In this document: positions 683 to 17,392 of the stretch, piece by piece
Numbering within the stretch: position 1 is the stretch's first letter
Layout of the letters: the number at the start of each line of letters is the position of its first letter
Source of the DNA: a virus
UHGV virus genome: UHGV-0204463
Length of the DNA: 39,398 bases
Direction: 5' to 3' (one strand)
Position numbers and translations under genes: made by a program
Notes under the pieces: generated by a model
Seen by the model: only the letters and a program-made list of their open reading frames with translations
The model's database searches: none
What the model was told of the DNA's origin: nothing

Positions 683-711
683 CCGCCAACTTTCCGCCAA
701 AAAACCGCCAA
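683..711. promoter_or_regulatory. three direct CCGCCAA repeats (TTGGCGG on gene strand) at exactly 11-bp phasing, immediately 3' of the arpU stop
   Basis: copies at 683-689, 694-700 and 705-711; one-helical-turn spacing is typical of protein binding arrays. Confidence 0.3.
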
Positions 712-716
712 AAATT

Positions 717-1133
717 TTATTTATATGCAATTATTTTTCCATTTCGATACGCTTCGGCAAATTCAATTAAAGCCTCTGATTTCATTCGTTGAATACTTCT
801 TTCGGAATATCCAACTTCCCTAGCTATCTTGTAATTAGAGTAATGATCCTGCACACAGAAACTATAATGCAAAATTTGTCTGCTAGTTAGGCTCAATGCC
901 ATAAGCGCAGATAAAATTGCGTCTCTTTCTGCTTCTGCATCTGCTAATTGTACTAGCGCATCTTCTGCTTTATTCCCGTGACTTTGGCTTTTAGGCATAT
1001 CTGTAATAATTGGTGATTTTAAATCTATCAAAGAGCGACCAGCTATTCGCTCTAAACGTCTAAAGTTCTTCAACACATTTCTGGCATTCGCTTTTGTTTG
1101 TCGAAAATCTACTTCTCTTAGCAATTTAATCAA
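717..1133 (-). CDS. ArpU-family phage late-gene transcriptional activator
   Basis: 138-aa ORF; KNFRRLERIAGRSLIDLKSPIITDMP and C-terminal ALIEFAEAYRNGK resemble ArpU-type regulators; lies at distal end of early operon. Confidence 0.7.
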   Translation of the reverse strand: MIKLLREVDFRQTKANARNVLKNFRRLERIAGRSLIDLKSPIITDMPKSQSHGNKAEDALVQLADAEAERDAILSALMALSLTSRQILHYSFCVQDHYSNYKIAREVGYSERSIQRMKSEALIEFAEAYRNGKIIAYK

Positions 1134-1149
1134 GTGAAATCGCTCCTTT

Positions 1150-1160
1150 TGTGGTATAAT
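1150..1160 (+). promoter_or_regulatory. extended -10 promoter-like TGTGGTATAAT on plus strand
   Basis: TGn-TATAAT match; a hairpin plus T-run terminator follows about 45 nt downstream. Confidence 0.25.
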
Positions 1161-1193
1161 AATTTATAATAAACATATCATCATTTAAGAGTT

Positions 1194-1221
1194 GCTTAGC
1201 GGAAACTAAGTAGCTTTTTTT
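1194..1221 (+). terminator. intrinsic terminator-like hairpin CTTAG-CGGAAA-CTAAG followed by T7
   Basis: stem-loop and T-run read directly; first of four hairpins sharing a CGGAAA loop. Confidence 0.4.
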
Positions 1222-1324
1222 ATTTATCCAAATATATATAAGTAATGCTTATCCTTTGCTCATCAGCGACTCTATATGATATAAATTATACTAAGAATAC
1301 TATTCCAATAGCTATTCACTTCTC

Positions 1325-1360
1325 AGCCAGTCGGCGGAAACCGACTGGCTATTTATTTAT
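1325..1360 (+). terminator. hairpin AGCCAGTCGG-CGGAAA-CCGACTGGCT (10-bp perfect stem) followed by ATTTATTTAT
   Basis: read directly. Confidence 0.4.
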
Positions 1361-1500
1361 CAAAATATTCATCACTCATACATGTTTGTAGTCAACAAAT
1401 TATTGGTTGACTATAAAGAAAACAATAATAATTCTACAGTATTTTACAATCTTCCATTCGTCATCTTTCACATCATCTTTATTCATTTGATATTTTCCAT

Positions 1501-1761
1501 CTAATAAATATTTTTGGCATAGAAAGTATTTTCAAATCTATTTTTCAATGGTATAATCACTTTAACTTTCTTGGGGATTTTATTTATGAAATAAATTTCC
1601 TCCTTTTCTACATTAACTTCTGGTAAACAGTTAATAGTAGTACACGTCTCTACAAGAGATTTATTGTCGATTTTTAATCGGCTATTTAATAGCACTTTAT
1701 TTGGGGAAAGTGCTAACTCACACCTAAAGAACAACTGGCGGAAAACAGTTGTTTCTACCAC
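1501..1761 (-). CDS. hypothetical protein (doubtful; GTG start, overlaps conserved hairpin)
   Basis: ORF track only; no recognisable motif. Confidence 0.2.
   Translation of the reverse strand: MVETTVFRQLFFRCELALSPNKVLLNSRLKIDNKSLVETCTTINCLPEVNVEKEEIYFINKIPKKVKVIIPLKNRFENTFYAKNIY
1549..1557 (+). promoter_or_regulatory. promoter-like TTTTCA-N17-TGGTATAAT on plus strand
   Basis: good -35/-10 match read in sequence. Confidence 0.25.
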
Positions 1762-1795
1762 ATAAGTCAGCTAGTGGTCAGCTGGCTTTTTTTGT
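1733..1795 (+). terminator. two hairpins (CAACTG-GCGGAAAA-CAGTTG, then CAGCT-AGTGGT-AGCTG) followed by T7
   Basis: read directly. Confidence 0.4.
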
Positions 1796-1857
1796 TGCCT
1801 TAAATTTCATAGTAATGTATTATTAATTGTCTCTATCTGAGATGAAAATGTATCTAT

Positions 1858-1888
1858 AACTAGCTAGCGGAAACTAGTTAGTTTTTTT
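1858..1888 (+). terminator. hairpin CTAG-CGGAAA-CTAG followed by T7
   Basis: read directly. Confidence 0.4.
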
Positions 1889-2039
1889 ATACTATTTTTG
1901 TTGGTTTTAAAACTACTTAGCCTTTTTATATAAATGTGAACGTCGAATAATTGAATATTAAATTCTTTAAATTTAATCATCTTCTTTACTCGCTTTCTAA
2001 CCGAATAATTCTCTTTGATCTGTTTACCCGTTTTACCCA

Positions 2040-2474
2040 CTACACTTGTTCCTCCAAACTTGTAATTTCTAGTTCTGTTCGTGGTCGCATACTGTACAAC
2101 TTTTGGCAAACCATCACAGCAATTTGACCATCGTTTTTATATAAAATACCTTCGGCAGCATCAGTGACTGCTTTGAAATAGTTGTCCAAGTCAGGTTTCT
2201 TATCGCAATATTTTCGCTCTAATTCCACTTCTAAGCGTTTCTGTTTATTACTTAAGGCAGATTTAGGCGGATGGATGTAAAACGTCACATGTGCGGAAAT
2301 TGGCCCTTTTTCAATCAACTTTGCTCTTGATTTACGAAAATAATTCTTTACTTGATTTTTGTATTCTTTCATCGCTCGATCTTCGTAAGTTTTAACATAA
2401 TTTCCACGCCTTGCAAATCTCGGGCGACTTTGTGGCTTGGGCTCAATCGGTAGAATAATTCGCATCTCTTCCAC
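2040..2474 (-). CDS. rusA: RusA-family Holliday junction resolvase
   Basis: 144 aa; KPDLDNYFKAVTDAAEG matches the RusA catalytic Asp-rich motif. Confidence 0.75.
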   Translation of the reverse strand: MEEMRIILPIEPKPQSRPRFARRGNYVKTYEDRAMKEYKNQVKNYFRKSRAKLIEKGPISAHVTFYIHPPKSALSNKQKRLEVELERKYCDKKPDLDNYFKAVTDAAEGILYKNDGQIAVMVCQKLYSMRPRTELEITSLEEQV

Positions 2475-2482
2475 CTCGAACC

Positions 2483-2782
2483 TTACAAATCGGCTTCTTT
2501 GACGAATACTCCGTTTACCATTTTTCCTTGGCGGTTTTTAATTTCGCTATATGCTTGATTTAAGCATTCGTATAAATCCATGTTATTTTGCATAGCGAGA
2601 ATAATTAACGTCACAACCATATCCCCGATACCATCTCTTAAGTCGTTTTCGTTGTTTCTTGCCAATGCAGCGCCAACTTCTCCGACTTCCTCAATCACTT
2701 TTAGCATTTGCTTTTCAGGTTCCGCTTTATCTAAACGCTTTTCTTTCGCCCATTCTTCCACTAATTTAACTAATTCATTCAT
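2483..2782 (-). CDS. MazG-like nucleotide pyrophosphohydrolase
   Basis: 99 aa; EEVGEVGAAL...DGIGDMVVTLIILA acidic helix pattern of MazG/NTP-PPase domain. Confidence 0.6.
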   Translation of the reverse strand: MNELVKLVEEWAKEKRLDKAEPEKQMLKVIEEVGEVGAALARNNENDLRDGIGDMVVTLIILAMQNNMDLYECLNQAYSEIKNRQGKMVNGVFVKEADL

Positions 2783-3085
2783 CTAAAATTCCTCCCCGAA
2801 ATCTAATTCACGTTTTAGCTTGCTGTGAATCGATTCTAGCTCTTTTTTGTATTCTTTGACTGTTTGTATTGTTTTACCACTAGAAAGCACATAATCGCGT
2901 TCTATTGCGACGAGAGCCTTACTTAAATTGCCATAATAACCAATCAAAGCGAGTGATTCTTTTTGTGTACCGTCTTTATCAGTCAAAATGGTTAACTCTC
3001 CGTGTTCGTTTCGTCTCGCTTTATTTACGATTACTTGCTTATCATCACTAGTAATTCGATAATCAAGTACTCTCATTTCAATCAT
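2783..3085 (-). CDS. hypothetical phage protein
   Basis: 100-aa ORF tightly packed in operon. Confidence 0.45.
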   Translation of the reverse strand: MIEMRVLDYRITSDDKQVIVNKARRNEHGELTILTDKDGTQKESLALIGYYGNLSKALVAIERDYVLSSGKTIQTVKEYKKELESIHSKLKRELDFGEEF

Positions 3086-3088
3086 GAT

Positions 3089-4051
3089 TTACTCTCCTCC
3101 CAACAATTCTTGCATTTGTCTTTCAAATTCAGCTTGCTCTTCTGGTGATAGCTTTTCTTCTTCACCGTTCGCTTGATTCATCCATTCAGGCACCTTTTCT
3201 TGCCGAACAGGTTTATTTTGATATTGCTTATTTTGTGTTTTTTTATCTGCTCGTTCTCTCTCGTTATTTAGATAATCAGCATATGTTTTTACACCATTTG
3301 CTCGCCAATTTTTCAAAATACCAGCAAAATAGCTATATCTTCGTTCATTATTTCTAGCACAGATATTAACAGCCTCTTTCAATAACTCGAGGTCTCCGTC
3401 AAAATCAGCAAGATCATATTGTAAATCAGTGATATTAACAGGAGTAGCAGGACTTACATTCTGTGAATAATAGCGGATTAACTCCGTTAGTTTTTCTTCA
3501 CCTAACGGCTCTTCAAAGAATGCTTTCTCAACCGACGTTTCAGGTGACAACGGATTGATGCAACTTTCTGTTTCTTTTTTGTTTACTTTACTTTTATTTA
3601 CTTTACTTTCCTTTACTTTACTTTGTGTATTAATGTCAGCATTAACTGTTTCATTTTGAGAGTTACTGTTGACATTAACTATATATTTAGTTGGTTTTGG
3701 TGTTTTCCGTCTTTTTGTCGCTTCGAAAAATGTCGCTTGGATATTCTCACTCGTAAGCACCTTGACCGAGTCAAACAGTTCTTTATCAAAAAATCCCCAT
3801 AAGACTAAGCGGTTCACTATTTGATTGAGCATTTCCTTACTTACTCCAGGCAGGCGTTTTAAAAGAGTTGCTTGCGATAAATCATCCCACAAAATGAAAT
3901 ATCCTTTTTTGTATATCGCACAAAGCAGTTTGATTACCGCAAGTTCTCCTTTAATACCAAATTCCCCAGCAATAGCTTCTATTTTTTCGTCTTCAAAAAT
4001 TCCAACATCAAGAGGAAAATAATCCAAACCTTCTTTTGCAGGTCTTGCCAT
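3089..4051 (-). CDS. phage replisome organizer / replication initiation protein (N-terminal DUF4373-like, C-terminal DnaD domain)
   Basis: N-terminal YFPLDVGIFEDEKIEAI motif; C-terminal YFAGILKNWRANGVKT DnaD-domain motif. Confidence 0.7.
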   Translation of the reverse strand: MARPAKEGLDYFPLDVGIFEDEKIEAIAGEFGIKGELAVIKLLCAIYKKGYFILWDDLSQATLLKRLPGVSKEMLNQIVNRLVLWGFFDKELFDSVKVLTSENIQATFFEATKRRKTPKPTKYIVNVNSNSQNETVNADINTQSKVKESKVNKSKVNKKETESCINPLSPETSVEKAFFEEPLGEEKLTELIRYYSQNVSPATPVNITDLQYDLADFDGDLELLKEAVNICARNNERRYSYFAGILKNWRANGVKTYADYLNNERERADKKTQNKQYQNKPVRQEKVPEWMNQANGEEEKLSPEEQAEFERQMQELLGGE

Positions 4052-4064
4052 TACATCTCCTTCT

Positions 4065-4955
4065 TTACTCTAATGGTGGATTTTTAGTATCAAATAAATC
4101 TGTTTGATTCAATGAATCTGAATCAGCTTCATTAATTACTTCTGCTGTTTTCATCGTAGTATTTTCTTCTACTTCCGTTTCGGAAATAATATTTCCATCT
4201 TCTTGCATTTGTTGAACTTTTTCATCTGAAGTTGTCGCTTCTTGCATTTCGATGGACAAAATCCCCCATTTTGATAACATATTTCTTAATACTGTTTTAC
4301 GAGCCATCGCATTATAATCTGTAGCCCAGACACCGCTCAATTTTGTTTTTTCTTTGTCTTTGCTATTTGCAATTCGATGAGCTTCAATTTCTTGTTTGGT
4401 CCAATAAACAGTTTTCTTGAATCCATTTAATAGTTCAAAATATCCAACATATCCGATTACATCGTCTGATTGTCTACCATTTGGATCAAATTCAAATTCT
4501 TCCGTTAACCTGTTCCAACTCAGTAACTCTCCTTCGTAGACTTCAATAACATTTAATGCTTTATATTTACCTGACCGTTGAGCCAATTGAATATACCCTT
4601 TATATCCTAAAATAAATTGGGCTTTCCTCTCCCATTTGCCAGTCTGCTTATTTTTAGTATTAAATGGTACGAGATAGGCATAACCTAGATTTTTATCTAA
4701 TCCTAAATTTAATGTAGCAGCTGTTAAAGCCCCGCTTAAAATAGACATTGGCTCGCTTTCTGCCAAGTAGCTATCATTAGAAACTAAGGTCATGACATTT
4801 GACATAAAAGCATTAGCATTTTCATGAAGAACTTCCTCAAATTTCCGCTTCATAGTAGGAGTATTCATTAATCCTTTTAAACCTAATTGATTCGCAGGAA
4901 CTTGTTTTTGATTTTGTTGTGATAATTGATTTTTTAAGGTCTCGTTTGTTGCCAT
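4065..4955 (-). CDS. recT: RecT-family single-strand annealing recombinase
   Basis: 296 aa; LSGALTAATLNLGLD...GYAYLVPF...FILGYKGYIQLAQRSG typical of RecT. Confidence 0.8.
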   Translation of the reverse strand: MATNETLKNQLSQQNQKQVPANQLGLKGLMNTPTMKRKFEEVLHENANAFMSNVMTLVSNDSYLAESEPMSILSGALTAATLNLGLDKNLGYAYLVPFNTKNKQTGKWERKAQFILGYKGYIQLAQRSGKYKALNVIEVYEGELLSWNRLTEEFEFDPNGRQSDDVIGYVGYFELLNGFKKTVYWTKQEIEAHRIANSKDKEKTKLSGVWATDYNAMARKTVLRNMLSKWGILSIEMQEATTSDEKVQQMQEDGNIISETEVEENTTMKTAEVINEADSDSLNQTDLFDTKNPPLE

Positions 4956-4957
4956 TA

Positions 4958-5899
4958 TTACTTAATCTCCTTTTCTATTAATCTTCGTGGCGTAGTAACC
5001 ATATATATTTCTTCATCTTCTGCAATTTGAGGATATTTTTCAGCAAACTTTTTACTGTTCAATCTTTTAGTAGGTATTTCCTTCCACTCAACAATATGTT
5101 TTTTAGTAATACCAATGCTTGCATTTCTTTTTCCCAATTCGCTTTTTATTTCATTTTCAATTTTTCTAATAGCTACATCCAACTCTTTTTTGGTTTTCTT
5201 CATTTCATTTTTTTGGTCTAACAATTCATCAAACGAAGCAGGTAAAGTAGTTTGCGTTTCTTCTATGTCGCTATACTTATCCTTTAAAAAGTCAGCTGTT
5301 GCCTTACTTCCGTCAATAATAGGTTCAACGCCTTTGATTACGTTATTTTCCCAAAAATCAACTAATTGCTCGGTCAGTACATCGATTAATTCCTGATCAC
5401 GTTCTACCCGTTTCCAAATAAATTTCTGACCACCAATTAAAACTGCAATATAACAATAGTCTTTATTCAAAACATTCATATAATGCTGAACTTGGCAAAG
5501 ATAACTCAATGGCACTTCGTCTCCTGCCCATTCTTTCGCTAAAAATTGATTTGCAGTTTTGCATTCTAGAATGGCATTTTCTCTAACCACTTCTCTATCA
5601 ATATTTGCTCTTAAAAAAGGATGGAGCGAATGTTCGAAGACTTGATTTCTACGACGAACTTTTTTTCCTGTTCTTTCTTGGAACTCTTTCGCAACAACTT
5701 CTTCTAAAACATTTCCCCAATAGGCTGGCTCGCTTTCTGTATCTTTCAGCTCAACTTGACCTGTTTTCTCTAGCCATAATTGATAAGCTGATTTATATTG
5801 ATTCAAGCCTAAAATTGTTGCAACGTCTGATCCTCCAATTCCTTTACGCCTATCCTCAAGCCATTCTTGATGGCTCATGGATAAAGTAGATTGAATCAT
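4958..5899 (-). CDS. YqaJ-like phage recombination exonuclease (lambda-Exo fold)
   Basis: 313 aa; N-terminal GIGGSDVATILGLNQYKS motif; paired with RecT. Confidence 0.8.
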   Translation of the reverse strand: MIQSTLSMSHQEWLEDRRKGIGGSDVATILGLNQYKSAYQLWLEKTGQVELKDTESEPAYWGNVLEEVVAKEFQERTGKKVRRRNQVFEHSLHPFLRANIDREVVRENAILECKTANQFLAKEWAGDEVPLSYLCQVQHYMNVLNKDYCYIAVLIGGQKFIWKRVERDQELIDVLTEQLVDFWENNVIKGVEPIIDGSKATADFLKDKYSDIEETQTTLPASFDELLDQKNEMKKTKKELDVAIRKIENEIKSELGKRNASIGITKKHIVEWKEIPTKRLNSKKFAEKYPQIAEDEEIYMVTTPRRLIEKEIK

Positions 5900-5996
5900 C
5901 TTTCGTCTTCCTCCTCATCGTATTCCCACGTTAGCTCTAACACTTCTTTTTCTTCAGGTGGCTCTTGTCTTGCCCCTAGCGAATCAAATTCAGGCA

Positions 5997-6224
5997 TTAC
6001 AATCCCTCCCAAAATAGTTTTATTTTTTCATCTTCCAATTCGATATAATCGACACCTTGCATTTGTAATTGATCTAAAAATGGTTTTGTAGCTCCTTTAC
6101 TGCTTACCACACAACTTGTATTGCCATAAGATGCAGATGTCCGAACAGATTGAATAATGTTATTCTGTGCGTTTGCTAGCATTAATTCGTAAATGTCGTT
6201 ACCTAAACCTCTTACTTCAATCAT
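5997..6224 (-). CDS. hypothetical phage protein
   Basis: 75-aa ORF in operon. Confidence 0.35.
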   Translation of the reverse strand: MIEVRGLGNDIYELMLANAQNNIIQSVRTSASYGNTSCVVSSKGATKPFLDQLQMQGVDYIELEDEKIKLFWEGL

Positions 6225-6547
6225 TACAACTCACCTCGTAAAAAATCTTTTAACAATATATCTAGTTTTTCCTCATTATTTTGTTTAGTTGAAGATGATT
6301 CTGCACCAATAAATGATTCTTTTATTTGTTTACATTGCGGACAATCACAATCATGAGCAAGTGCTTCCTCTTTAAATTTTTCAAATAATTCACTAAATGC
6401 AATTGCTTGTTCAGGCAAAGAACCTGCAAGTAAAACACTGGATGCTTCCATCATTTCTGAATCAACAGTTGACAAAACAATCGTAACTTTTCCTTTCCGA
6501 CATTCTTTAACAAGTTCCATTAATAAATTTTGAATTTTATCGTTCAT
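6224..6547 (-). CDS. hypothetical phage protein (CDCPQC cysteine pair)
   Basis: 107-aa ORF; stop/start abutting neighbours. Confidence 0.4.
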   Translation of the reverse strand: MNDKIQNLLMELVKECRKGKVTIVLSTVDSEMMEASSVLLAGSLPEQAIAFSELFEKFKEEALAHDCDCPQCKQIKESFIGAESSSTKQNNEEKLDILLKDFLRGEL

Positions 6548-6590
6548 TTTGATATACTCTCCTTAGTTAATAAATTTTGAATTTTTTTGT

Positions 6591-6776
6591 TCAATATTTG
6601 CCCTGTTCGTTTGCAGACGTTCGGGGCTCTTTTTGTACTATGCTTAATCTCTCTGGATAAACGTTTTTATCAGCTGAAACATACGGATATTCTTCAAACA
6701 ACTTTCGCATGACTTCCGCTTGTGTTTCTCCAATCACATATGTTTCTCTACTAGCTTCGCCTATAGCTACATACAT
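6591..6776 (-). CDS. hypothetical phage protein
   Basis: 61-aa ORF. Confidence 0.3.
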   Translation of the reverse strand: MYVAIGEASRETYVIGETQAEVMRKLFEEYPYVSADKNVYPERLSIVQKEPRTSANEQGKY

Positions 6777-6961
6777 TTTTTATCGCCTCCTTTTTTAGAG
6801 TATTGATACTTTGCTTCATCCCAGTTAAAAAACCAATGGATAAAGAAAGGTGCACTTAGTGTTGCTAGTATTGGCATTGAAAAGTGGCTTTTCAGCAATA
6901 CTCCTAGTACAATCATCAATAAAAATGCGCCTACTAATCGTGTTTCTCGGATTGCTTTCAT
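6767..6961 (-). CDS. small membrane protein
   Basis: 64 aa with hydrophobic helix LVGAFLLMIVLGVLL. Confidence 0.35.
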   Translation of the reverse strand: MKAIRETRLVGAFLLMIVLGVLLKSHFSMPILATLSAPFFIHWFFNWDEAKYQYSKKGGDKKCM

Positions 6962-7013
6962 GTTGTTAACCTCCTATATTTTGATATAATTCAATTGAAA
7001 GTGAGGTGCAAAA

Positions 7014-7196
7014 ATGTTTTTTGTGATTAAACGAGCTTCTGATAAAAAATACTATTTTTTGATTAAAACTGAAGAAAATGAAATAATCGCATCAAGCAAA
7101 ACTTACTACTACAAATCTTCTGTTTTAGAAATCATTGAATCCATTAAGAATGATATGAATCCAAAAGCAATCATTGTTGATACTACTTTTAACTGA
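7014..7196 (+). CDS. DUF1508 (YegP-like) domain protein, own promoter and terminator
   Basis: 60 aa; ...EIIASSKTYYYKSSVLEIIESIKN resembles YegP repeat; RBS GAGGTG; upstream TTGTTA-N16-TATAAT; terminator follows. Confidence 0.55.
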   Translation: MFFVIKRASDKKYYFLIKTEENEIIASSKTYYYKSSVLEIIESIKNDMNPKAIIVDTTFN

Positions 7197-7232
7197 GGAT
7201 AAGTTAGGCTTATCCTTTTATTTTTATTTACT
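7197..7232 (+). terminator. hairpin AGGATAAG-TTAGGC-TTATCCT followed by T-run
   Basis: read directly. Confidence 0.45.
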
Positions 7233-7235
7233 GAT

Positions 7236-8006
7236 CTAGCTCACTTCTTTAAACATATCTCCGTTTCCATTAGCCATATCAATTCTTGCTTGTAATTCCA
7301 AGTCAGGCTTCCATTTAGGAATTAGAGTTAATGCTTCTTCATATCGAACTTTTGGAATATCTATATAAGAGGCTACATCGAATAATGCTTTCAATTGTTT
7401 ATAGCAATTACTAAATGCTGATTGCTTAATACTTGAATCCTTATAAGCCGATGTTTTTTTGCCACCTAATACTTTGATAACAGTTGATGAAACTAGGCCT
7501 TGTATCTTTCGTTGTTGGCTTCTATTAATTGTTGTTTCTGTTTCTAGCTTATCTAAACGTTGATTTACAAGAGTCAATCCACGTTCATGTTTTAACGCAG
7601 CTTCTAATAACAATTCTGTGTTATTCATCGGTAAGTTTGATTGAGTTTTGAGCAGTTCCTCCATTTGGTTGAAAGCTTCAATGTATTTCAGTTTAAACTT
7701 AAGAGCTTTTTGACCAGTGAATCCCATTGCTAGCAGTGTGAATCCGTCACGGTTCATAATGATTTGTCTATATTTTTGTTTGTTTTGTGGATGAATATAA
7801 CTATCTTCGTAAAATAGGTCTGCGTAATTTTCCGCAACCCCCTCTTTTAGATCATCAATCGCTGCTAAAACATCACGATGATTTTTATTAAACGTTTCAG
7901 CAACTTGTAAACTAGTTGTTACTGCTTGTTGGTTTTTCATAATTACTAAGTTGTCCATTTTTTCCTCCTTAAATTGTTTCTGTATTGCTCTTTCCTTTAA
8001 TCCCAA
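7236..8006 (-). CDS. phage antirepressor (Rha N-terminal domain plus ORF6C C-terminal domain)
   Basis: AVTTSLQVAETFNKNHRDVLAAIDDL...RDGFTLLAMGFTGQKALKFKLKYIEAFNQME fits Rha family; C-terminal QQRKIQGLVSS fits ORF6C. Confidence 0.8.
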   Translation of the reverse strand: MGLKERAIQKQFKEEKMDNLVIMKNQQAVTTSLQVAETFNKNHRDVLAAIDDLKEGVAENYADLFYEDSYIHPQNKQKYRQIIMNRDGFTLLAMGFTGQKALKFKLKYIEAFNQMEELLKTQSNLPMNNTELLLEAALKHERGLTLVNQRLDKLETETTINRSQQRKIQGLVSSTVIKVLGGKKTSAYKDSSIKQSAFSNCYKQLKALFDVASYIDIPKVRYEEALTLIPKWKPDLELQARIDMANGNGDMFKEVS

Positions 8007-8314
8007 TGATTCATGATGTCATTACAAATTTTTATAGCTTCTTTAGCAGGCCAATATCTTTTTCCCTTGCTAGTACCAGGCTTTCTTTTTTCGATTATTT
8101 GCATACGTTTGTCTTTTACAAAATTTTGTTCAACTTCAGGAACAGACATTGAATATCTAGACGATAATTGTTTGATGTCTAAATACTCAGCACGTTCATT
8201 TAATCCTTGACTAGCTTCATTTATGACTTGTTCAAACATTTTTCTCAGGATTTTTTCAATAATGTTGTATAGAAAGTTTTTTGAAGATGTATCTAAGAAA
8301 TTTTCCATTTTCAT
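7997..8314 (-). CDS. hypothetical phage protein, possible HTH
   Basis: 105-aa ORF immediately downstream of cro-like gene. Confidence 0.4.
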   Translation of the reverse strand: MKMENFLDTSSKNFLYNIIEKILRKMFEQVINEASQGLNERAEYLDIKQLSSRYSMSVPEVEQNFVKDKRMQIIEKRKPGTSKGKRYWPAKEAIKICNDIMNHWD

Positions 8315-8319
8315 TCCTC

Positions 8320-8511
8320 CTATCTGATTTTGTAAAAGTCGATAATTGCCAAAAGTGTTTCGTGTGCTTTTTTACTTTTATTTTTTCCGTTCAGATAATC
8401 GATCAAATCTTGTCTTGGAATATCAAAATAGGTAGCAACACTAACCAACGAAATTCCCTTACTTTCAAAGTAATCACGAATTTTTTGACGACTTACTGAT
8501 GTGTCTGGCAT
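8320..8511 (-). CDS. Cro-like XRE helix-turn-helix regulator
   Basis: 63 aa; ISLVSVATYFDIPRQDLIDYLNG HTH; divergent from cI-like gene. Confidence 0.65.
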   Translation of the reverse strand: MPDTSVSRQKIRDYFESKGISLVSVATYFDIPRQDLIDYLNGKNKSKKAHETLLAIIDFYKIR

Positions 8512-8559
8512 TTTTGATGCTCCTTTCTTTAGTATTAAATAAGTTAATTTGATAGAAAT

Positions 8560-8745
8560 AAAAAAATATTGTTGACATTTTTACGCTATAGAGTAAAATG
8601 GATACATAAAGAAATAAACCTATAACAAAGCCTTTCATATGCACTTGGTCGCCAAACTCAATGCTAATAAGGTGTGTTTTAGTTTGTTTCTTTTCTATCA
8701 AATTAACTTACGAATCAATAATAACTCTATAGAGTAATTTTGTAA
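8560..8745. promoter_or_regulatory. divergent early promoter/operator region with repeated CTCTATAGAG-type palindromes
   Basis: TTGACA-N16-TAAAAT at about 8572-8600 overlaps CGCTATAGAGTAA; perfect 10-bp palindrome CTCTATAGAG at about 8724-8733. Confidence 0.45.
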
Positions 8746-9797: not shown

Positions 9798-9914
9798 ATT
9801 TTTAGCAATGGTAAAATTAAAACAAAAAAAGTCCGTGCTGGGCACACGGACTTAAACCTCATTTTGAGATTTACTGACAAGTATATTATAACAGAAATGA
9901 GGATTAATTTAAAA

Positions 9915-10679
9915 ATGAAAAAAATTGTTACTTTAAGTTTATCATTATTACTGCTGACTGCTTGTTCTAACGAAACTAAACAGGTTTCAAAGCAAAACTC
10001 AAGCTCTACCACAATTACATCCGAAAAGAAAGATATTTCTGATTCTAAAAAAATTAATAGCTCAAGTAGTGAGTCATCAACTATACATTATTCAAGTACA
10101 CAAACAGATGAAACAACTCAAATGGAATTAGGTGGGTCTACCTATTCCCAAATTTTAGAGACTTATACTCAAAAGTTGACTACAACTACACCTATATTGA
10201 TTGAAGAACTGCGAAATGAAGGAGAACCTATAAAAGGCAATGTTTCAGCATTAGCTGAGGTTTTAAACTCTAAAATAGGAAAATTAGCAGATATTTCAAA
10301 TGCTGGAATTTCGGAAATGGCAAGCATACAACTTTCTAATAAAGACGACTATTCATTATATGAATCATGGGCAAATAAACTAACAGATGTTTATACTGCT
10401 GAAGCAAATAAGTTAACAGACTTGTATACCGAATTAGCTGCTGTTAACACGGAAATTTCTACATCACAACAACCATTGCCATCTACTCAATCATCTTCAG
10501 CAATTGAACAACCTCAAAGCTCTGAAGTTGAACAACCCGTATATGACAAAGTACGAAGCGGCGAAGGAGCTCGACAAGTAGCTGAGAGGAATGGATTAAC
10601 CTTAGAACAACTATTTGCACTAAATCCAGGCATTGACACCTCTGTTTTTTATCCTGGTCAACCACTAAGAATTAAATAA
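9915..10679 (+). CDS. lipoprotein with C-terminal LysM domain (ORF track 9864-10679; likely start MKKIVTL)
   Basis: signal peptide with lipobox LLTAC; Ser/Thr-rich linker; C-terminal LysM-like YDKVRSGEGARQVAERNGLTLEQLFALNPGI...YPGQPLRI. Confidence 0.65.
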   Translation: MKKIVTLSLSLLLLTACSNETKQVSKQNSSSTTITSEKKDISDSKKINSSSSESSTIHYSSTQTDETTQMELGGSTYSQILETYTQKLTTTTPILIEELRNEGEPIKGNVSALAEVLNSKIGKLADISNAGISEMASIQLSNKDDYSLYESWANKLTDVYTAEANKLTDLYTELAAVNTEISTSQQPLPSTQSSSAIEQPQSSEVEQPVYDKVRSGEGARQVAERNGLTLEQLFALNPGIDTSVFYPGQPLRIK

Positions 10680-10693
10680 AGGAGAGAACTTTT

Positions 10694-11023
10694 ATGAAAA
10701 AGATTAAATATTTTATTTATACACTACTATTGCTTATTGTATTTACTGCATGCGGAACTAAAGAAGTTAAGCCTGATTATACTAGTAAAGAAGCTGAAAC
10801 AGCACTAAATAACGGCGAAGATTTAACAGGTAAAACTGTGCAATTTACAGTTGATAAATATGTTCCTGATGGCTCATTAGGATATACAATTCAAACTGGA
10901 GATCATTTAAACTTTGTTTCAAGCAAAAATCCAGATGTAAGAACAGGGGATAAAGTAATTGCAAAAATAAAGAAAGTTGAAAACCTTATGGGGTCTTGGA
11001 TAATTACTTTCGATAAAAAATAA
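10694..11023 (+). CDS. small lipoprotein
   Basis: 109 aa; signal peptide and lipobox FTAC; RBS GGAGAG. Confidence 0.6.
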   Translation: MKKIKYFIYTLLLLIVFTACGTKEVKPDYTSKEAETALNNGEDLTGKTVQFTVDKYVPDGSLGYTIQTGDHLNFVSSKNPDVRTGDKVIAKIKKVENLMGSWIITFDKK

Positions 11024-11076: not shown

Positions 11077-12246
11077 ATGAATATTGAAGGTGAAACTATG
11101 GCGAAACTAAATTGGTCCAAAAAATACAAATATGTTTTTTCGTACTCAAACAAAAAAGGAACTTTTTGGGGATATCGCTATCCTTATTACAACTCTCTAA
11201 AACACCGAAAAGAAGCTAGCAAACGTGGATTTGAAAGTGAAAGAGCGGCGAATAAAGCATTGCTAAAAATCCAATATGATTTAGAAACACAAAATACTTC
11301 CTTCATCGAAAATAAACAACTCACCATAGATGAATGGATCAAAGTCTGGATACCTTACGCCCAAGACAATTGGAGTGTTTCAACAAAACAAAATATTGAA
11401 TCTGCTATCAAATTTCACATATCACCATTAATTGGAAATCAGAAACTATCTTCTTTAAATAAGATTACCTATAAGCGAGAATTTATTGACAAATTAAGAC
11501 AAGAAAACAAATATACAGAATCCACGATTCAAACGTGGCATAAAATTGTAATGAGGATGATTAACGCTGCGGTACACAATCAAATCATCCCTAGCAACAC
11601 GCTAACAGGCTTTAAATTTGATTTAAGTAATAATGTTCGTTCATTCTCTAAAAAGGAATTACAGCGATTTATAGCGGTTTTAGAAAACGAAGATATTCAA
11701 ACGCAAGTTATATTTTTGACTCTGCTAAAATCTGGAATGAGAAAAGGTGAATTGATGGGGCTGCGTTGGAGTGATATTGATTTAAACGAAAAATATTTCG
11801 ATATCAATTCTACACGTGGCGATTATGGTGAAAATAAGCCGAAAACAAAAACTAGTATTCGTAAAGTTTATTTTGACAACTCATTACTCACTTTAATAAA
11901 AAAATACAAAAATCATGAGAAAGAACGGCTTTTTAGAGAAGGGATAATTTTAAGCGATAAGGACTATTTTATTTTAAGTTCTCGAAATTTACCTATCAAA
12001 CAATCAAGAATTACGTATATGTTTCGCCTGTTATGTGAAAAAGCAGAAGTTCAAAACATAACCGTACACGGCCTAAGACATACCCATGCAACGTTTTTAA
12101 TTGAAGCAGGAGCAAACATTAAGTACGTTTCAACTCGGTTAGGACACAAGAATATTAATATAACTTTGGATGTTTATAGCGATGTGCTAAAAGAAGAAGA
12201 AAAAGAAACAGCTGATATGATGGATAAACTTATTGAGAACTTGTGA
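11077..12246 (+). CDS. int: tyrosine-type site-specific integrase
   Basis: 389 aa; C-terminal HGLRHTHATFLIEAGANIKYVSTRLGHKNINITLDVYSDV (R..HxxR..Y catalytic pattern). Confidence 0.85.
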   Translation: MNIEGETMAKLNWSKKYKYVFSYSNKKGTFWGYRYPYYNSLKHRKEASKRGFESERAANKALLKIQYDLETQNTSFIENKQLTIDEWIKVWIPYAQDNWSVSTKQNIESAIKFHISPLIGNQKLSSLNKITYKREFIDKLRQENKYTESTIQTWHKIVMRMINAAVHNQIIPSNTLTGFKFDLSNNVRSFSKKELQRFIAVLENEDIQTQVIFLTLLKSGMRKGELMGLRWSDIDLNEKYFDINSTRGDYGENKPKTKTSIRKVYFDNSLLTLIKKYKNHEKERLFREGIILSDKDYFILSSRNLPIKQSRITYMFRLLCEKAEVQNITVHGLRHTHATFLIEAGANIKYVSTRLGHKNINITLDVYSDVLKEEEKETADMMDKLIENL

Positions 12247-12447
12247 TTTGTGGTAAATCTGTGGCAAAAACACTCAAAACCATTGATATATAAACGCTCT
12301 ACCACTCCCCATCTGAAATTCCATAACAATTTAAGGAACAAAAAAATCATACAATACGCATTAAATAGCTGTTTTGTCATTTTTAATAATCTAAGATATG
12401 TAAATAATACCGCAAATCTGTGGTAAATTTTGTGGTAAAAATACACC
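12247..12447. repeat. TGTGGTAAA-type direct repeats just 3' of int (candidate arm-type integrase sites / att region)
   Basis: TTTGTGGTAAATCTGTGGCAAAAA at 12247-12275 and AATCTGTGGTAAATTTTGTGGTAAAAA at about 12412-12445. Confidence 0.35.
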
Positions 12448-12515
12448 TATGAGTATTTGACATTTTATTGAGTTTAGAATACGGCTAACTGAATTAGTTT
12501 GCCTAGAAGGCGACT

Positions 12516-12560
12516 ACGAAAAAAAAGACCTTATTCTTAAAAGAATGGAGGTCTTTTTTG
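12516..12560. terminator. bidirectional terminator hairpin (A8-stem-T6)
   Basis: AAAAAAAAGACCTTATTCTTAAAAGAATGGAGGTCTTTTTT read directly. Confidence 0.45.
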
Positions 12561-12683
12561 TATTATAATAATAATCACACCAACTGACTTTTAGACTTTT
12601 ATTTCAATTTTGTAAGTCAATCGTTAGATATATCAATGGATAAGTAGAATATTTCATTCTATTCTCTTTTTGAGGTGAATACA

Positions 12684-12809
12684 ATGAAAAAAATAATTAA
12701 ACATTTTATGAAACCTGTTGAAGTTTTTGAAACATTAGATGATGATATTGGGATGTTTTTAATCATTTCTATTTGCACAGCTCTGATCTTTACTTTCTTT
12801 AGTAAATAA
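12684..12809 (+). CDS. 41-aa hydrophobic small peptide (below ORF-track cutoff)
   Basis: RBS GAGGTG 7 nt before ATG; MKKIIKHFMKPVEVFETLDDDIGMFLIISICTALIFTFFSK has one TM helix. Confidence 0.3.
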   Translation: MKKIIKHFMKPVEVFETLDDDIGMFLIISICTALIFTFFSK

Positions 12810-12904
12810 AAAATGTGTTAAATAAATTCTCAGATACTTTCCGCAGTATATCAAATTGGGAAGTCAAAAATATCTAAAAAGAATTGACTTTTCATACAAC
12901 GTAT

Positions 12905-12938
12905 TTTTATGGACCATACAGGACTCGAACTGCAGTGC
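12905..12938 (-). other. partial tRNA 3' end (T-loop GTTCGAGTCC plus acceptor ATGGTCC-A) - putative att core copy
   Basis: minus-strand GCACTGCAGTTCGAGTCCTGTATGGTCCA; its acceptor strand is a perfect complement of the 5' strand GGACCAT of the tRNA-like gene at 14078-14150. Confidence 0.4.
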
Positions 12939-12949
12939 AAAAAAATCAA

Positions 12950-12997
12950 GCTTTTTTAAGCGGCTTATTTCCTAAACTGAACTGGAGATAAGCCGTT
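12950..12997 (-). terminator. terminator hairpin downstream of hemH
   Basis: AAGCGGCTTAT...ATAAGCCGTTT stem with flanking T/A runs. Confidence 0.35.
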
Positions 12998-13105
12998 TAA
13001 TTTTTGCTTAATTCTACTATATGCTATACCAGTAAATATATTCGTGCAAACCCTGAATAAATTGTTTAACAAATTCAAACTAAAATAAAAAACTAAAACA
13101 AATTA

Positions 13106-14047
13106 CTACAAAGAAATAATGTCCTTTACTAATTTTGCAAATTCAATATCTCCATTAAATGGATGAACATATTTGTAGACTTCCCCGCCATTTTCTAAAA
13201 AATAGTTTCTGTTTTCGTGTTCCAATTCTTCTATTGTTTCTAGACAGTCTACAACAAAACCTGGTGCAACAATTAATATATTTTTAATACCTTTTGATGG
13301 TAATTTTTTCAAGGTATCATCAGTTGCTGGTTTTAACCATTCAGATGGCCCAAATTTCGATTGATAGGTTTGATAATAACGAATATCTCCTAATTTATCC
13401 ATTATTAATTTTGTTGTTTTAGTACATTCCTTCGGGTAGTTATCCCCATCTTTTACATAAGACATAGGAATTCCGTGGTATGAAAAAACGATAGCATCTA
13501 TTGGACTTTCATTCAAAGCTTCATTTATTTTTTTTGAAAAGTAATCTATATACTGTGGATTATTGTAAAATGATCGAATAAATTTAATATCCACTATCCT
13601 ATCACTTTTTATAAAATAATTCATAACGGAATCAAACACTGATCCTACCGTTGTCCCAGAGTATTGCGGATACATTGGTATGACATTGAGTTCTTCAATC
13701 TCTTTTGATAATAATGTATCTAGAGCAGTTTCTATACTCGGTTCACTATATGACATTCCGATTGTAACTTCCACTTCTGGACATATATTTTTCAAATTTT
13801 CCATTTGTTTCTCAGTATATTCCAAAAGAGGAAATCCATTTTCAGTACAAATTTTTTGATAGAGTTTTGCTGATTTTTTTGGACGTATATTCAAGATAAT
13901 ACCGTTCAAAATCGGTTTCCAAATTATAGGATGTATTTTTATTACTCTTCTATCTGATAAAAAAGTTTTTAAATACTTCCTTACTTCCGTCTTGGAAGAA
14001 TCTTTTGGTGTTCCTAAATTCACTAAGAGAATTCCTGTTCTTTTCAA
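13106..14047 (-). CDS. hemH: ferrochelatase (protoheme ferro-lyase)
   Basis: 313 aa; N-terminal LLVNLGTP, SYHGIP and other ferrochelatase signatures. Confidence 0.9.
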   Translation of the reverse strand: MKRTGILLVNLGTPKDSSKTEVRKYLKTFLSDRRVIKIHPIIWKPILNGIILNIRPKKSAKLYQKICTENGFPLLEYTEKQMENLKNICPEVEVTIGMSYSEPSIETALDTLLSKEIEELNVIPMYPQYSGTTVGSVFDSVMNYFIKSDRIVDIKFIRSFYNNPQYIDYFSKKINEALNESPIDAIVFSYHGIPMSYVKDGDNYPKECTKTTKLIMDKLGDIRYYQTYQSKFGPSEWLKPATDDTLKKLPSKGIKNILIVAPGFVVDCLETIEELEHENRNYFLENGGEVYKYVHPFNGDIEFAKLVKDIISL

Positions 14048-14077
14048 AATAATTCACTACCTGTCTAATTCTATTAT

Positions 14078-14150
14078 CGACCATGATGAATTCGAACCAT
14101 CGACCGAATAGTCATGAGCCATTTGCTCTAACCAGCTGAGCTAATGGTCC
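14078..14150 (-). tRNA. tRNA-Met(CAT)-like gene with G1-G72 acceptor mismatch (possibly pseudo or chimeric 3' end)
   Basis: minus strand GGACCAT-TA-GCTC-AGCTGGTTA-GAGC-A-AATGG-CTCATGA-CTATT-CGGTC-GATGG-TTCGAAT-TCATC-ATGGTCG-A folds as cloverleaf, anticodon CAT; no encoded CCA. Confidence 0.5.
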
Positions 14151-14512
14151 AAGTAATAACTAGCTTATTGGGGATAAAATAGTTCTTACTAGTTATAGCT
14201 TAATATATAACAATTTTACTTTACTGATTTTCAATTTTCAACAAAAAAACGACCACCTTATTGAGAAAAGGCGGTCTGCGTGAAAAAATAAGAGTTTAAA
14301 TATGTATAGATATTTTACAATATCTATTTTTTGAGTTCAATATTTTTATGTAAAAAAAGCCGCCTCATTGGGGTAAGGCGACAAGAGGTAGTAATAAAAT
14401 GAAAAATAAAATTGTTTGGTAAAGATATTTTACCTCTTTCTTTTTTTAATTTCAAGTTTTCATTTTACAAAACAATTGTATTTTATTTATAATTCAAATA
14501 TACAACTGTATT

Positions 14513-14575
14513 AAAAACACCTACTAAACATACACAACTTGGGGAAGTATTGTGCGTCTTAAGTAGGTGTTTTCT
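14513..14575. terminator. bidirectional terminator hairpin with conserved inner loop CTTGGGGAAGTA (copy A)
   Basis: A5-ACACCTAC...GTAGGTGT-T4; homolog of 15910-15973. Confidence 0.45.
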
Positions 14576-14599
14576 ATATACACAAGATAATTTCGTTTT

Positions 14600-14670
14600 A
14601 ACTACTATGATAAATTCGAACCATCAACCTAATGGTCATGAGCCGTATGCTCTAACTAGCTAAGCTAACA
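14600..14670 (-). pseudogene. degenerate second copy of the same tRNA-Met-like sequence
   Basis: shares GGCTCATGAC anticodon loop and GATGGTTCGAATTTATC T-arm with 14078-14150, but acceptor and D stems do not pair. Confidence 0.35.
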
Positions 14671-14744
14671 ATTTTTAAATAAAAAATAACAGATCCTTTA
14701 ACATGTAAAGAATCTGTTTAGAAAAAAGAGTATGCCATAAATCC

Positions 14745-14790
14745 TTGTCTTAAGTTTAACACAAAGACCCTAATCTAAACTAGGGTCTTT
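14745..14790. terminator. bidirectional terminator AAGACCCTA-loop-TAGGGTCTT
   Basis: read directly. Confidence 0.45.
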
Positions 14791-15015
14791 TTATTGGTAC
14801 ATCGATAATAGTTTCTCATAACTAATTACTGTTTTTTCTTTTTTGTTTTTTGGCTTAGAACTGTCTATAATATTAATTACTGCTGAATTAATTAATAAAA
14901 CAGCTATTATACCACTTCTAATTTCTTTTCTGTAAATAAATGATACTTTCTGTCCTTCTTCAAACTGTTTACTTTTATCTGATGGTATAACTTCTTTCCA
15001 TGTTCCAAATCCCAT
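14791..15015 (-). CDS. small membrane protein (ORF track 14791-15042; likely start MGFGTW with RBS AAAGGAGA)
   Basis: one TM helix IIAVLLINSAVINII; bracketed by two terminators. Confidence 0.35.
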   Translation of the reverse strand: MGFGTWKEVIPSDKSKQFEEGQKVSFIYRKEIRSGIIAVLLINSAVINIIDSSKPKNKKEKTVISYEKLLSMYQ

Positions 15016-15074
15016 ATGATGATCTCCTTTCGTTTTCAACATTCAGAGCCTATCAATTTAATCTTATAAAAAAA

Positions 15075-15103
15075 ACGTTCCAATTAAATTGGAACGTTTT
15101 ACC
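15075..15103. terminator. perfect palindrome AAAACGTTCCAATT-TAAA-TTGGAACGTTTT
   Basis: read directly; downstream of csp. Confidence 0.5.
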
Positions 15104-15113
15104 AAAACCTTTA

Positions 15114-15314
15114 TTATGCTTTAAAAATATTAACAGCTTGCATACCGCGCTGTCCTTCTTCAATATCAAAAGTTACTGCTTGTCCTTCTTCTAATGACTT
15201 AAAACCATCCGCTTGAATTGCTGAAAAATGAGCAAATACATCATTGCCATCTTCACCTGTAATAAATCCAAAACCTTTGTCTGAGTTAAACCACTTTACT
15301 GTACCGTTGTTCAT
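15114..15314 (-). CDS. csp: cold-shock protein, CspA family (ORF track to 15335; start [10 protein letters not shown])
   Basis: [15 protein letters not shown] and [12 protein letters not shown] motifs; RBS AAGGAGG. Confidence 0.9.
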
Positions 15315-15909
15315 ATATGTTTCCTCCTTGTGCATACCCTGTATGCGATTTGTTGCAAAAAATGTTTGATAAGCAAAAGGAGAATTATAGTCTTATGTAT
15401 AGCGCTCTCGTTACATGTCAAAATTGATTACTTATTTATAATACCATACTATTTCCTATAAAGCAAATGAGTGTATTAAAACATGATGGACCAATACTAT
15501 AAAAAGGTTATAATCCATCTACTCTAGACATGAAATATAAATATACGATACAAAAACCCCCTTGCACAATTATGATACAAGGGGCCTGTAGTCTTTTACT
15601 ACAAGTAATTGCTTTATTATTCTAGCAAATTAGTTTTGTTAATTCAACCAATAAAATCATTCACGACTTATTAACAAAATTGTGTTTGGCTTTAAATTAG
15701 AACTGGGATATTAAGGAATATCGCTAAAGTAGCTATACTACACTTTTCCACTTATTTAAAAGGAAACTGTTCTCAAGTAATAGTAGCTTAGAAATAGTCT
15801 AATTCTATTTTTATTAGGATAAATTCCGTACACATTATCCTTTTCATAAATTCAAGCTTAACCTTGTTATAAAAAAAGAAAATCGGTTATGATTAACAAG
15901 TAAAATCTA

Positions 15910-15973
15910 AAAAAAACACCTACCGCACAGTCAACTGCTTGGGGAAGTACGTGCATCTGTGGTAGGTGTTTTC
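15910..15973. terminator. bidirectional terminator hairpin with conserved inner loop CTTGGGGAAGTA (copy B)
   Basis: A7-ACACCTACC...GGTAGGTGT-T4; homolog of 14513-14575. Confidence 0.45.
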
Positions 15974-16019
15974 TTATGTAATACAATAGCTTTAAACTAA
16001 GCTACTTATTAGTAAAATT

Positions 16020-16085
16020 AAAATGCTCCTACCTAAGAACTTGTCATAAGATAGGAGCACCTCTTTTCTAAATCGAAAAGAGTCA
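16020..16085 (-). terminator. terminators of the lysis operon (two hairpins then T-run)
   Basis: CTCTTTTC-GATTTA-GAAAAGAG and TGCTCCTATCTT...AGGTAGGAGCA read on minus strand after lysin stop. Confidence 0.4.
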
Positions 16086-16150
16086 TAATATGAAAAGGTA
16101 ACTCTATTGTAAATGAGCTACCTCTAAATTTCAACTGATTTTGCAAAAAA

Positions 16151-17392
16151 TCAATGGCTCAATGTTTGACCAGGATAAATCAAGTTAGGATTTGCTAATC
16201 CGTTTAATGCAGCTAAGGTTTGATAAGTCGTACCAAGCTTAGCTGCAATACTTGATAAATTATCACCGTATTGAACTGTGTAAATGTTGCTTACTACTGA
16301 TCCATTTACTTTCAAAATTTGGCCAGGGTAAATAAGATTTGGATTTGTCAATCCATTTAATGCAGCCAATGTTTGATAGTTTGTTCCGTATTGATAAGCA
16401 ATGCTTGATAATGTTTCGCCATATTGTACCACATGAGTCGCTTCTGGTTGTTTATCAGGAACAGTTGCCGCATCTGGCAATAATTCAATATCGCCTTTGC
16501 TAATCCATGACAAGATACCTTCTAGCAATACTCTGCTTCCAGTTACTTCTTGCACTTTATAGCTGTTTCCTTTTACCCAATCTGGAATAGCTTCGCCAGT
16601 TGCCCAAGCATCTACATTAAATTTTACTTTGACGGTATCACCAACTTTTACTGCAGAAGTAGGTGTTTTTTCAACTTCTTTACCTTCTTCAATAGCTGGT
16701 GTGTTTGTTTCTGGTTGGTTATTTTTTGTATAACCATTATCGGTAATACCTGTTAAATCAACGTTACCATCTAGCCCTCCTGCAACGTAGGTTGACGTGA
16801 ACTGAAAAATACCGATATTTTCAAATGAAGGAAAATAATTGTAATTTGGATAAGGTGTCACTTCATAATCTGGATATTCTGCCATCCATAATTGATACTT
16901 CTTTGCAATTCGTGATAGATCATAAGCTGAAGTAAGATACCCTTTGTATCCGTAAAGCATCGGTGTATATCCAGCCTCTTTGATGTAGTCTAACGCCCAT
17001 AGCGTTACATCCGTCGATTGAACGCCGTCTTCCGCATCTAAGGCGACAATTGATCCCTTTGGTGTTTGAACTTTAGGTAAAAAGTAATCTAATACTTGCT
17101 TTGCATTTTCATAGGTAAGAACATTTTGCCACCATACATACGTATGCGCTCGTTTACCTTGAGCAATCGTACTAGCTACTTGACTAGAATAAGTAACTTG
17201 ATCATAAATCCCATAGTTGTTTTGCCCACCAATTTGTGAAATTGAGAATTTATCATGTGCATAACCAAATGTTGCTTGATACCCATTCCAAATAGACAAA
17301 TCAACGCCTTGGTCTCCTTTTGCAGCAAATGTGCTAACTGGTGATACAAAAAATAAGACTACCAGTAATGTTGCCAATAGTTTCTTTTTCAT
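16151..17392 (-). CDS. endolysin: N-terminal signal peptide, GH25 muramidase domain, two C-terminal LysM repeats
   Basis: [26 protein letters not shown] signal; [12 protein letters not shown]25-like motif; two near-identical LysM repeats; directly after holins. Confidence 0.8.

Follow-up and report, generated by a model that had tools for sequence, protein, structure and literature searches.

How a ferrochelatase gene comes to stand between the lysin and integrase genes of a phage, and whether it belongs to the phage at all, is the question raised by the virus genome UHGV-0204463, a stretch of DNA of 39,398 nucleotides (here, the window) that comes close to the full genome length of a temperate siphophage of Enterococcus. 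The interval in question carries the ferrochelatase gene, hemH, with a tRNA gene upstream of it, and csp, which encodes a CspA-family cold-shock protein. A preliminary description of the sequence had called both protein genes complete and had read them as accessory cargo in the slot between lysin and integrase, with the alternative that they are chromosomal genes trapped between two prophage parts. Both genes proved to be complete, and the slot lies between the endolysin and integrase genes and contains an intact phage attachment site (attP) junction (Table 1). Mapping of the attachment (att) sites in lysogens, described below, leaves us confident that the interval is a moron-type accessory region, located on the right arm of a temperate siphophage of E. 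faecalis that belongs to the V583 prophage 4 (pp4, or phage04)/SEsuP-1 type.

The cargo interval lies inside the attachment sites of the phage

To locate the ends of the element, chromosomes encoding exactly the window HemH (10) or exactly the window integrase (7) were fetched and their homology to the window was mapped. At all ten HemH loci, phage tail, holin and lysin genes were followed by csp, by orf83 (an 83-codon open-reading frame, ORF), by hemH, and then by ComGF, ComGG, an N6-methyltransferase and acetate kinase. All seven integrase loci ran from early genes through int into a truncated comGD and on to comGC, comGB, and comGA. Coming from hemH, homology to the window stopped at position 12302; coming from int, it stopped at 12320. 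The overlap of the two ends gives a 19-bp attP core, CCACTCCCCATCTGAAATT, with phage DNA on both sides of it in the window. The core is identical to the att core listed for pp4 in Table 2 of PMC3675006, where pp4 (ef1988-ef2043) is placed 'within cglD-like gene', the assignment having been confirmed by sequencing of the attP and attB (bacterial attachment site) polymerase chain reaction products, and where excision of pp4 is reported to restore the reading frame of a competence-like operon (Matos 2013, PMC3675006). Joining the host flanks of attL and attR in silico restored comGD intact at 148 aa, and the start of comGE overlaps the core there; the empty attB is in our case a reconstruction, and it agrees with the published experimental attB. 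Because homology ends at 12302 and 12320, hemH, the tRNA gene and csp lie within the att-bounded element, on its right arm, and the cargo occupies 12321-16150, with the attP core as its limit. An uninterrupted junction running from lysin through csp, hemH, attP and int to early genes was also present in a metagenomic viral contig.

The nearest deposited genome is that of Enterococcus phage SEsuP-1 (MZ333458.1), and the last and first bases of the window fall on neighbouring positions of that genome, collinear over the join. The window is thus one genome length of a circle, a complete genome in circular permutation with its opening upstream of the gene for the small terminase, and represents the excised circular (attP) form of a temperate E. 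faecalis phage of the pp4/SEsuP-1 type. The integrase recombines the 19-bp core with an identical copy close to the 3′ end of the comGD-like gene of the host, giving the lysogen order comGA-B-C-D′ / int … late genes - lysin - csp - orf83 - tRNA - hemH / comGE-F-G.

A succession of lysin, host-like genes, and integrase is what tandem prophages would be expected to show, and the genes do look bacterial, the nearest relatives of hemH being chromosomal. These features would suit the alternative that hemH, the tRNA gene and csp are chromosomal genes between two prophages, or were taken in by an over-extended prophage prediction, but the att mapping rejects it and we give it next to no weight. On the hemH side of the core, the DNA is phage-side DNA in every lysogen, with host comG sequence only beyond 12302; the comGD of the reconstructed empty site is intact and leaves no space for cargo; and the window ends abut on the SEsuP-1 map at one circle length. 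None of the 15 chromosomal contexts of hemH placed the interval between flanks free of phage genes. In each, phage lysis genes lay on one side, followed by csp, orf83, hemH and attR, and the split comG operon lay on the other. The species-representative genome of E. faecalis gave no hemH match, which fits a gene reported in only ~ 62% of strains of the species by a 2024 review (PMC11282960).

Several further observations concern the attachment site. Integration swaps the last ~ 16 host comGD codons for phage-encoded ones, giving products of 138-147 aa versus 148 aa (window 12274-12446, minus strand; lysogens L015, 9198-9641, and L003, 11668-12069), and splits comGE-F-G off their operon; an ORF beginning in the phage arm runs through the core into comGE. 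The SEsuP-1 record carries an exact 77-bp terminal repeat (1-77 and 39243-39319, equal to window 12302-12378) that begins at the core boundary, so that this record, like the metagenomic contig, shows the attP junction. This repeat was considered as the att core and rejected, the true core being 19 bp. Its appearance is that of a k-mer overlap left by the assembler where the attP and attR paths branch in the graph, not that of a biological terminal repeat, and it adds 77 bp to the length of that record.

HemH appears to be a classical protoporphyrin-type ferrochelatase

HemH matched the ferrochelatase family PF00762 with E = 2.1e-107 (359 bits against a cut-off of 27) over model positions 1-313 of 317, and it passed the NCBIfam hemH equivalog model TIGR00109 with 321 bits against a cut-off of 124.6. 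Human ferrochelatase aligned with it over its full length (E = 8e-34), and the catalytic residues are conserved: H191, in SYHGIP, corresponds to human H263, and E270, in DCLET, to human E343, with Cys268 at the position of human H341. The best solved relatives were the human and yeast protoporphyrin ferrochelatases, whereas structures of the coproporphyrin ferrochelatase (CpfC) of Bacillus and Listeria aligned partially, with E ~ 1e-16. Scores against two Bacillus-type models fell well below threshold (79 bits versus 455 for NF009095 and 78 versus 408 for NF000689). The UniRef name for the protein is 'coproporphyrin III ferrochelatase'. From these comparisons, HemH appears to be an intact ferrochelatase of the classical protoporphyrin type and not of the Bacillus coproporphyrin type, with the substrate preference being a prediction. 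Index blocks with the identical sequence number 1476, and every variant at 97-100% identity is full length.

Outside of E. faecalis, the nearest relative is a chromosomal hemH of Lapidilactobacillus wuchangensis, one of the heme-auxotrophic lactic acid bacteria, at 64% identity. It is of the same subtype and length and likewise stands alone, without other heme genes nearby, but it lies beside an endonuclease IV-like gene with no phage genes or tRNA adjoining. Further relatives, taken from 50%-cluster representatives, are found in Defluviitaleaceae, Lactobacillus corticis and Limosilactobacillus at 45-53% identity and then in Gammaproteobacteria, so that, judged by name, the representatives mix Clostridia, Lactobacillaceae and Gammaproteobacteria. 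A single-protein scan of species-representative genomes, which finds close relatives only, returned the Lapidilactobacillus gene and two flavobacterial genomes at 33-34%, and no convincing donor was found in it.

The preliminary description had called a ferrochelatase very unusual in phages, and for cultured phages this is borne out: a tblastn search of 50,697 deposited phage records gave one close match, SEsuP-1, and eight weak ones, and hemH is rare in that group. In marine pelagiphage-related contigs, annotated ferrochelatases (PHROG phrog2954) have been reported as candidate auxiliary metabolic genes (PMC11561400). Our HemH had no PHROG family match at E ≤ 0.001, and at this threshold it does not group detectably with the marine phage 'ferrochelatase' PHROG. 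The same description had correctly mentioned a lone hemH in enterococci, and in E. faecalis that lone hemH turns out to be this prophage gene (PMC3675006, PMC10746210, PMC11282960). In this species, hemH is phage cargo, tied to a specific integrase and to the comGD attachment site.

Predicted transcription signals suggest separate units in the interval

Each cargo gene had been described as having its own terminators. The region contains nine terminator-like sites in our scan compared to 1.5 expected, and the statement holds for csp, which is followed by a 13-bp stem, and for orf83. It does not hold for hemH, where the terminator scan and a downstream hairpin analysis found no clear intrinsic terminator and the 3′ side shows only a weak, long-loop hairpin ~ 110-150 nt past the stop (z = − 1.7). 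Upstream of the tRNA-hemH pair, two intrinsic-terminator-like hairpins would shield both genes from upstream transcription. A bidirectional terminator-like hairpin at the inner edge of the right arm was read from the sequence, as it falls under the GC (guanine plus cytosine) threshold of the terminator scan.

Since hemH starts only 28 nt past the 3′ end of the tRNA, it probably uses the tRNA promoter and not one of its own. A promoter-like site, identified by its match to the consensus, precedes the pair, and the tRNA and hemH are probably co-transcribed. For csp, expression of the corresponding gene in V583, EF1991, has been reported, with up-regulation in blood (PMC2766626).

The slot is built from cassettes and moves with the integrase

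The cargo has a GC content of 29.3% versus 35.3% in the late region, and csp and orf83 are bracketed by two copies of a long hairpin. The outer copy, past the lysin stop, marks the far end of the csp cassette and is also a probable late-operon terminator. In two related prophages, L032 and L033, csp is missing and only one hairpin is present. The slot also has a second, degenerate tRNA copy, 85% identical to the intact one over 71 nt and 524 nt away from it, which scores 28.2 bits in Rfam (14604-14672) against a gathering score of 29. Prophages of another type (L038) lack this 524-bp unit and have instead one hybrid tRNA (L038 9904-9974), the 5′ half of which comes from the broken copy. Cassettes are thus present or absent between homologous neighbours in L032, L033, L038 and Enterococcus phage IME197, as is characteristic of morons.

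The cargo has also been found on a different phage body. A HemH variant of 97% identity lies behind another structural module, with a 1484-aa tape measure protein and a different holin and lysin, in the same csp-orf83-hemH-attR order. Since the cargo, attP and int are contiguous in the circular genome, they form one recombination block common to phages with different tail and lysis modules. Such a block explains why int, csp and hemH were more frequent than phage04 structural genes in the survey of Sharon 2023 (PMC10746210). It also explains why a pangenome scan detected strong linkage, over a long range, of a recombinase of the XerC type with the intergenic region of the tRNA and hemH (PMC11368177). 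In a degraded prophage, L012 (GCA_014853495.1, 4189-7903), the small terminase gene nearly adjoins the XkdX, holin and lysin genes. The structural genes have mostly been lost, yet csp, orf83 and hemH are intact.

Comparison with known prophages and phages

The presence of the cargo genes in this type of phage is already known. Matos 2013 listed 'a ferrochelatase (pp4)' among predicted fitness factors (PMC3675006), Sharon 2023 described hemH and the csp EF1991 in phage04 as enriched in urinary isolates (PMC10746210), and the SEsuP-1 paper (Viruses 2023) counted ferrochelatase and CspA among potential adaptation factors (PMC9865981). What is added here is the classical HemH type, the probable sharing of the tRNA promoter by hemH, the cassette-built slot, and the cargo-attP-int block common to phages with different tail modules.

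By its published description, pp4 resembles the window in the identical 19-bp core, the same comGD-like (cglD-like) target, the restoration of the comG ORF on excision, and a ferrochelatase with an EF1991-type csp at the lysin-proximal end. It differs in having morphogenesis pseudogenes and no infectious particles, whereas the window has uninterrupted large structural ORFs in its ORF list and a circular configuration. SEsuP-1, of the proposed genus 'Vespunovirus', is 98.6% identical over 12400-16200 and ~ 97-99% identical over the lysogeny module and most late genes, with an integrase of 99.7% identity; a ferrochelatase, tRNA-Met, cold-shock protein and lysin are annotated in the same interval. 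It has another replication and recombination module, a terminase-portal region only 87% identical to that of the window, and two annotated tRNAs, including a tRNA-Asn, versus one in the window. The replication and recombination module of the window (1-8700, with RecT, YqaJ and a DnaB-like loader) is ~ 95% identical to that of phiFL1/2/3-type phages and not to that of SEsuP-1. By these alignments the window reads as a mosaic of a phiFL-like early region with SEsuP-1-like late, cargo and lysogeny parts.

IME197 uses the same slot, with a homologous tRNA and post-lysin hairpin. Morons in the lysin-attP slot of phages such as this one are, like the present cargo, terminator-bounded units with a base composition unlike the rest of the genome. 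The IME197 genes encode TIR, DUF4231 and Abi proteins (anti-phage defence), in contrast to the metabolic and stress proteins HemH and Csp in the window.

A possible role of HemH in the lysogen

E. faecalis makes no heme, yet uses heme for catalase and cytochrome bd. In the mechanism that we propose, csp-orf83 and tRNA-hemH would be separate, terminator-insulated units with sigma-70-like promoters active in the lysogen. HemH would insert Fe2+ into scavenged protoporphyrin IX to give protoheme in one step, and Csp might act as an RNA chaperone or antiterminator that aids the lysogen under stress. That HemH completes heme from protoporphyrin IX, for catalase and cytochrome bd, in a host without the rest of the pathway is a reading of the sequence to which we assign slightly less than an even chance. 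More tentative is the wider proposal that phage HemH lets heme-auxotrophic lysogens finish heme from scavenged porphyrin, so that catalase and respiration through cytochrome bd would be switched on without heme from the host, and that the trait spreads as a cargo-attP-int block onto unrelated phage bodies. If true, heme completion together with spread of the block would explain the 62% prevalence of hemH, its urinary and hospital enrichment, and the long-range int-hemH linkage.

None of the evidence contradicts where the genes lie or that they are cargo. Certain points weigh against the account in other respects. The promoter-like sites of the region number 27 compared to 21.8 ± 4.4 expected, which is not above chance, and they are consensus matches only. 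For the functional part, the searchable literature yielded no published assay of HemH from E. faecalis and no other experiment on it. As for the phage as a vehicle, we infer packaging of this genome from its intact morphogenesis ORFs and the SEsuP-1 record; pp4 excises and replicates but yields no infectious particles (PMC3675006), and the isolation route of SEsuP-1 is absent from its paper (PMC9865981). To these is added the preference of the 2024 review, discussed next, for the opposite reaction.

That review, which does not mention prophages, favoured, by analogy with IhtB of P. gingivalis, that enterococcal HemH works in reverse, removing iron from imported heme for iron acquisition or heme detoxification (PMC11282960). 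The lack of other heme-synthesis genes in the host agrees with this, and the enrichment in isolates from urine, where iron is scarce, would fit it as well (PMC10746210). We nevertheless consider it unlikely, though a live rival: the score of HemH against the hemH equivalog model is above the cut-off, the catalytic His and Glu found in forward ferrochelatases are retained, and its sequence shows neither an evident signal peptide nor any feature of surface exposure. The comparison with other heme auxotrophs also counts against it, as in Haemophilus influenzae and Lactococcus lactis a lone HemH makes heme from protoporphyrin IX. Somewhat less likely again is that the cargo is a hitch-hiking relic, kept by its proximity to attP and int with no benefit to phage or host. 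The slot does contain debris, namely the degenerate tRNA, the mismatched 1:72 pair of the intact tRNA and the duplicated hairpins around the csp cassette, and linkage to int alone could account for the co-occurrence statistics (PMC11368177). A relic, however, would not be expected to be full length in every variant at 97-100% identity, with HemH in so many index blocks, or to be retained behind different structural modules and in the degraded prophage L012. The greater frequency of cargo genes than of phage structural genes (PMC10746210) and the transcriptional response of csp EF1991 (PMC2766626) argue against it in the same way.

Other features of the slot and the genome

Csp has a single cold-shock domain with RNP1 (KGFGFI) and RNP2 (VFAHF) in its translation, and its ORF as listed (15114-15335, minus strand) matched PF00313 with E = 4.3e-29 (100.6 bits against 27). 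The start is most likely the ATG after AAGGAGG, which gives the 66-aa form in Table 1 and is annotated likewise in other records. The Rfam cspA thermoregulator RF01766 scored 38.1 bits against 78, below threshold, with the match mostly over the coding region. The orf83 product had no Pfam, NCBIfam or PHROG match. The same three collections gave no match for the small ORF at 12675-12809, which is transcribed toward hemH and may encode a small membrane peptide or be a toxin-like gene.

Table 1 Features of the window and of the cargo interval
Feature	Position	Strand	Basis
Early genes	8701 down to 1	-	
Two lipoprotein-like ORFs, ImmA-type peptidase, Xre repressor	preceding the integrase		
Tyrosine integrase, 389 aa, target comGD-like gene	11077-12246	+	PF00589, E = 1.3e-29
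attP core, 19 bp	12302-12320		Overlap of attR-side and attL-side homology ends
Bidirectional terminator-like hairpin, GACCT…AGGTC between A and T runs, inner edge of right arm	12519-12560		Read from sequence
Small ORF, 44 aa (41 aa annotated elsewhere), hydrophobic C-terminus	12675-12809	+	ORF list; SEsuP-1 coding sequence; lysogens
hemH, ferrochelatase, 313 aa, TTG start, GC 30%	13106-14047	-	PF00762, TIGR00109
tRNA, anticodon CAT, 28 nt upstream of hemH	14076-14151	-	ARAGORN; Rfam tRNA, 53.6 bits
Promoter-like site TTGAAA-17-TAAAAT before tRNA-hemH	14241-14213	-	Consensus match only, 10/12
Two intrinsic-terminator-like hairpins upstream of tRNA-hemH	14276-14251, 14382-14359	-	Terminator scan
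Long hairpin, copy 1, inner edge of csp cassette	14509-14578		Inverted repeat I1; direct repeats D2, D8
Degenerate second tRNA, broken acceptor stem	14598-14672	-	Direct repeat D1; Rfam
orf83 terminator-like site	14718-14688	-	Terminator scan
orf83, 83 aa, always accompanies csp	14791-15042	-	ORF list; called in all lysogen contexts
csp terminator, 13-bp stem	15100-15072	-	Terminator scan
csp, CspA-family cold-shock protein, 66 aa (EF1991/cspC type)	15114-15314	-	PF00313, phrog_729
Long hairpin, copy 2, 176 nt past lysin stop	15910-15975		Inverted repeat I2
Endolysin, GH25 + 2 LysM, final late-operon gene	16151-17392	-	PF01183, PF01476
Late genes	~ 38,000 down to endolysin	-	ORF list and Pfam

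The intact tRNA has the anticodon CAT, and its sequence, we presume, resembles a lysidine-type tRNA-Ile2 more than an elongator tRNA-Met. At ~ 12907-12945, the sequence TGGACCATACAGGACTCGAACTGCAG looks by eye like a tRNA 3′ end (acceptor and T-arm) in reverse complement and may be left over from an older attachment site linked to a tRNA; it was not among the Rfam matches. Between the lysin stop and the csp start as listed, 815 nt (15336-16150) contain no convincing ORF. This stretch holds promoter-like sites (16134-16085), the second long hairpin and a terminator-like hairpin (15584-15558), and might represent either a small RNA or a long leader of csp. A candidate for the Rfam family 'Enterococcus sRNA 84' (Ref84) was seen at 14351-14421 on the minus strand, ending in a terminator hairpin, and was rejected as a member at 31 bits against a gathering score of 52. 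Lastly, the lysogeny module has a second accessory slot (9864-11023, plus strand) between the ImmA peptidase and the integrase, which contains a lipoprotein-like ORF of 109 aa and a gene for a 271-aa protein that combines a LysM domain with a lipoprotein-like signal sequence; in one lysogen (L014), an insertion sequence with an rve transposase lies within this slot.

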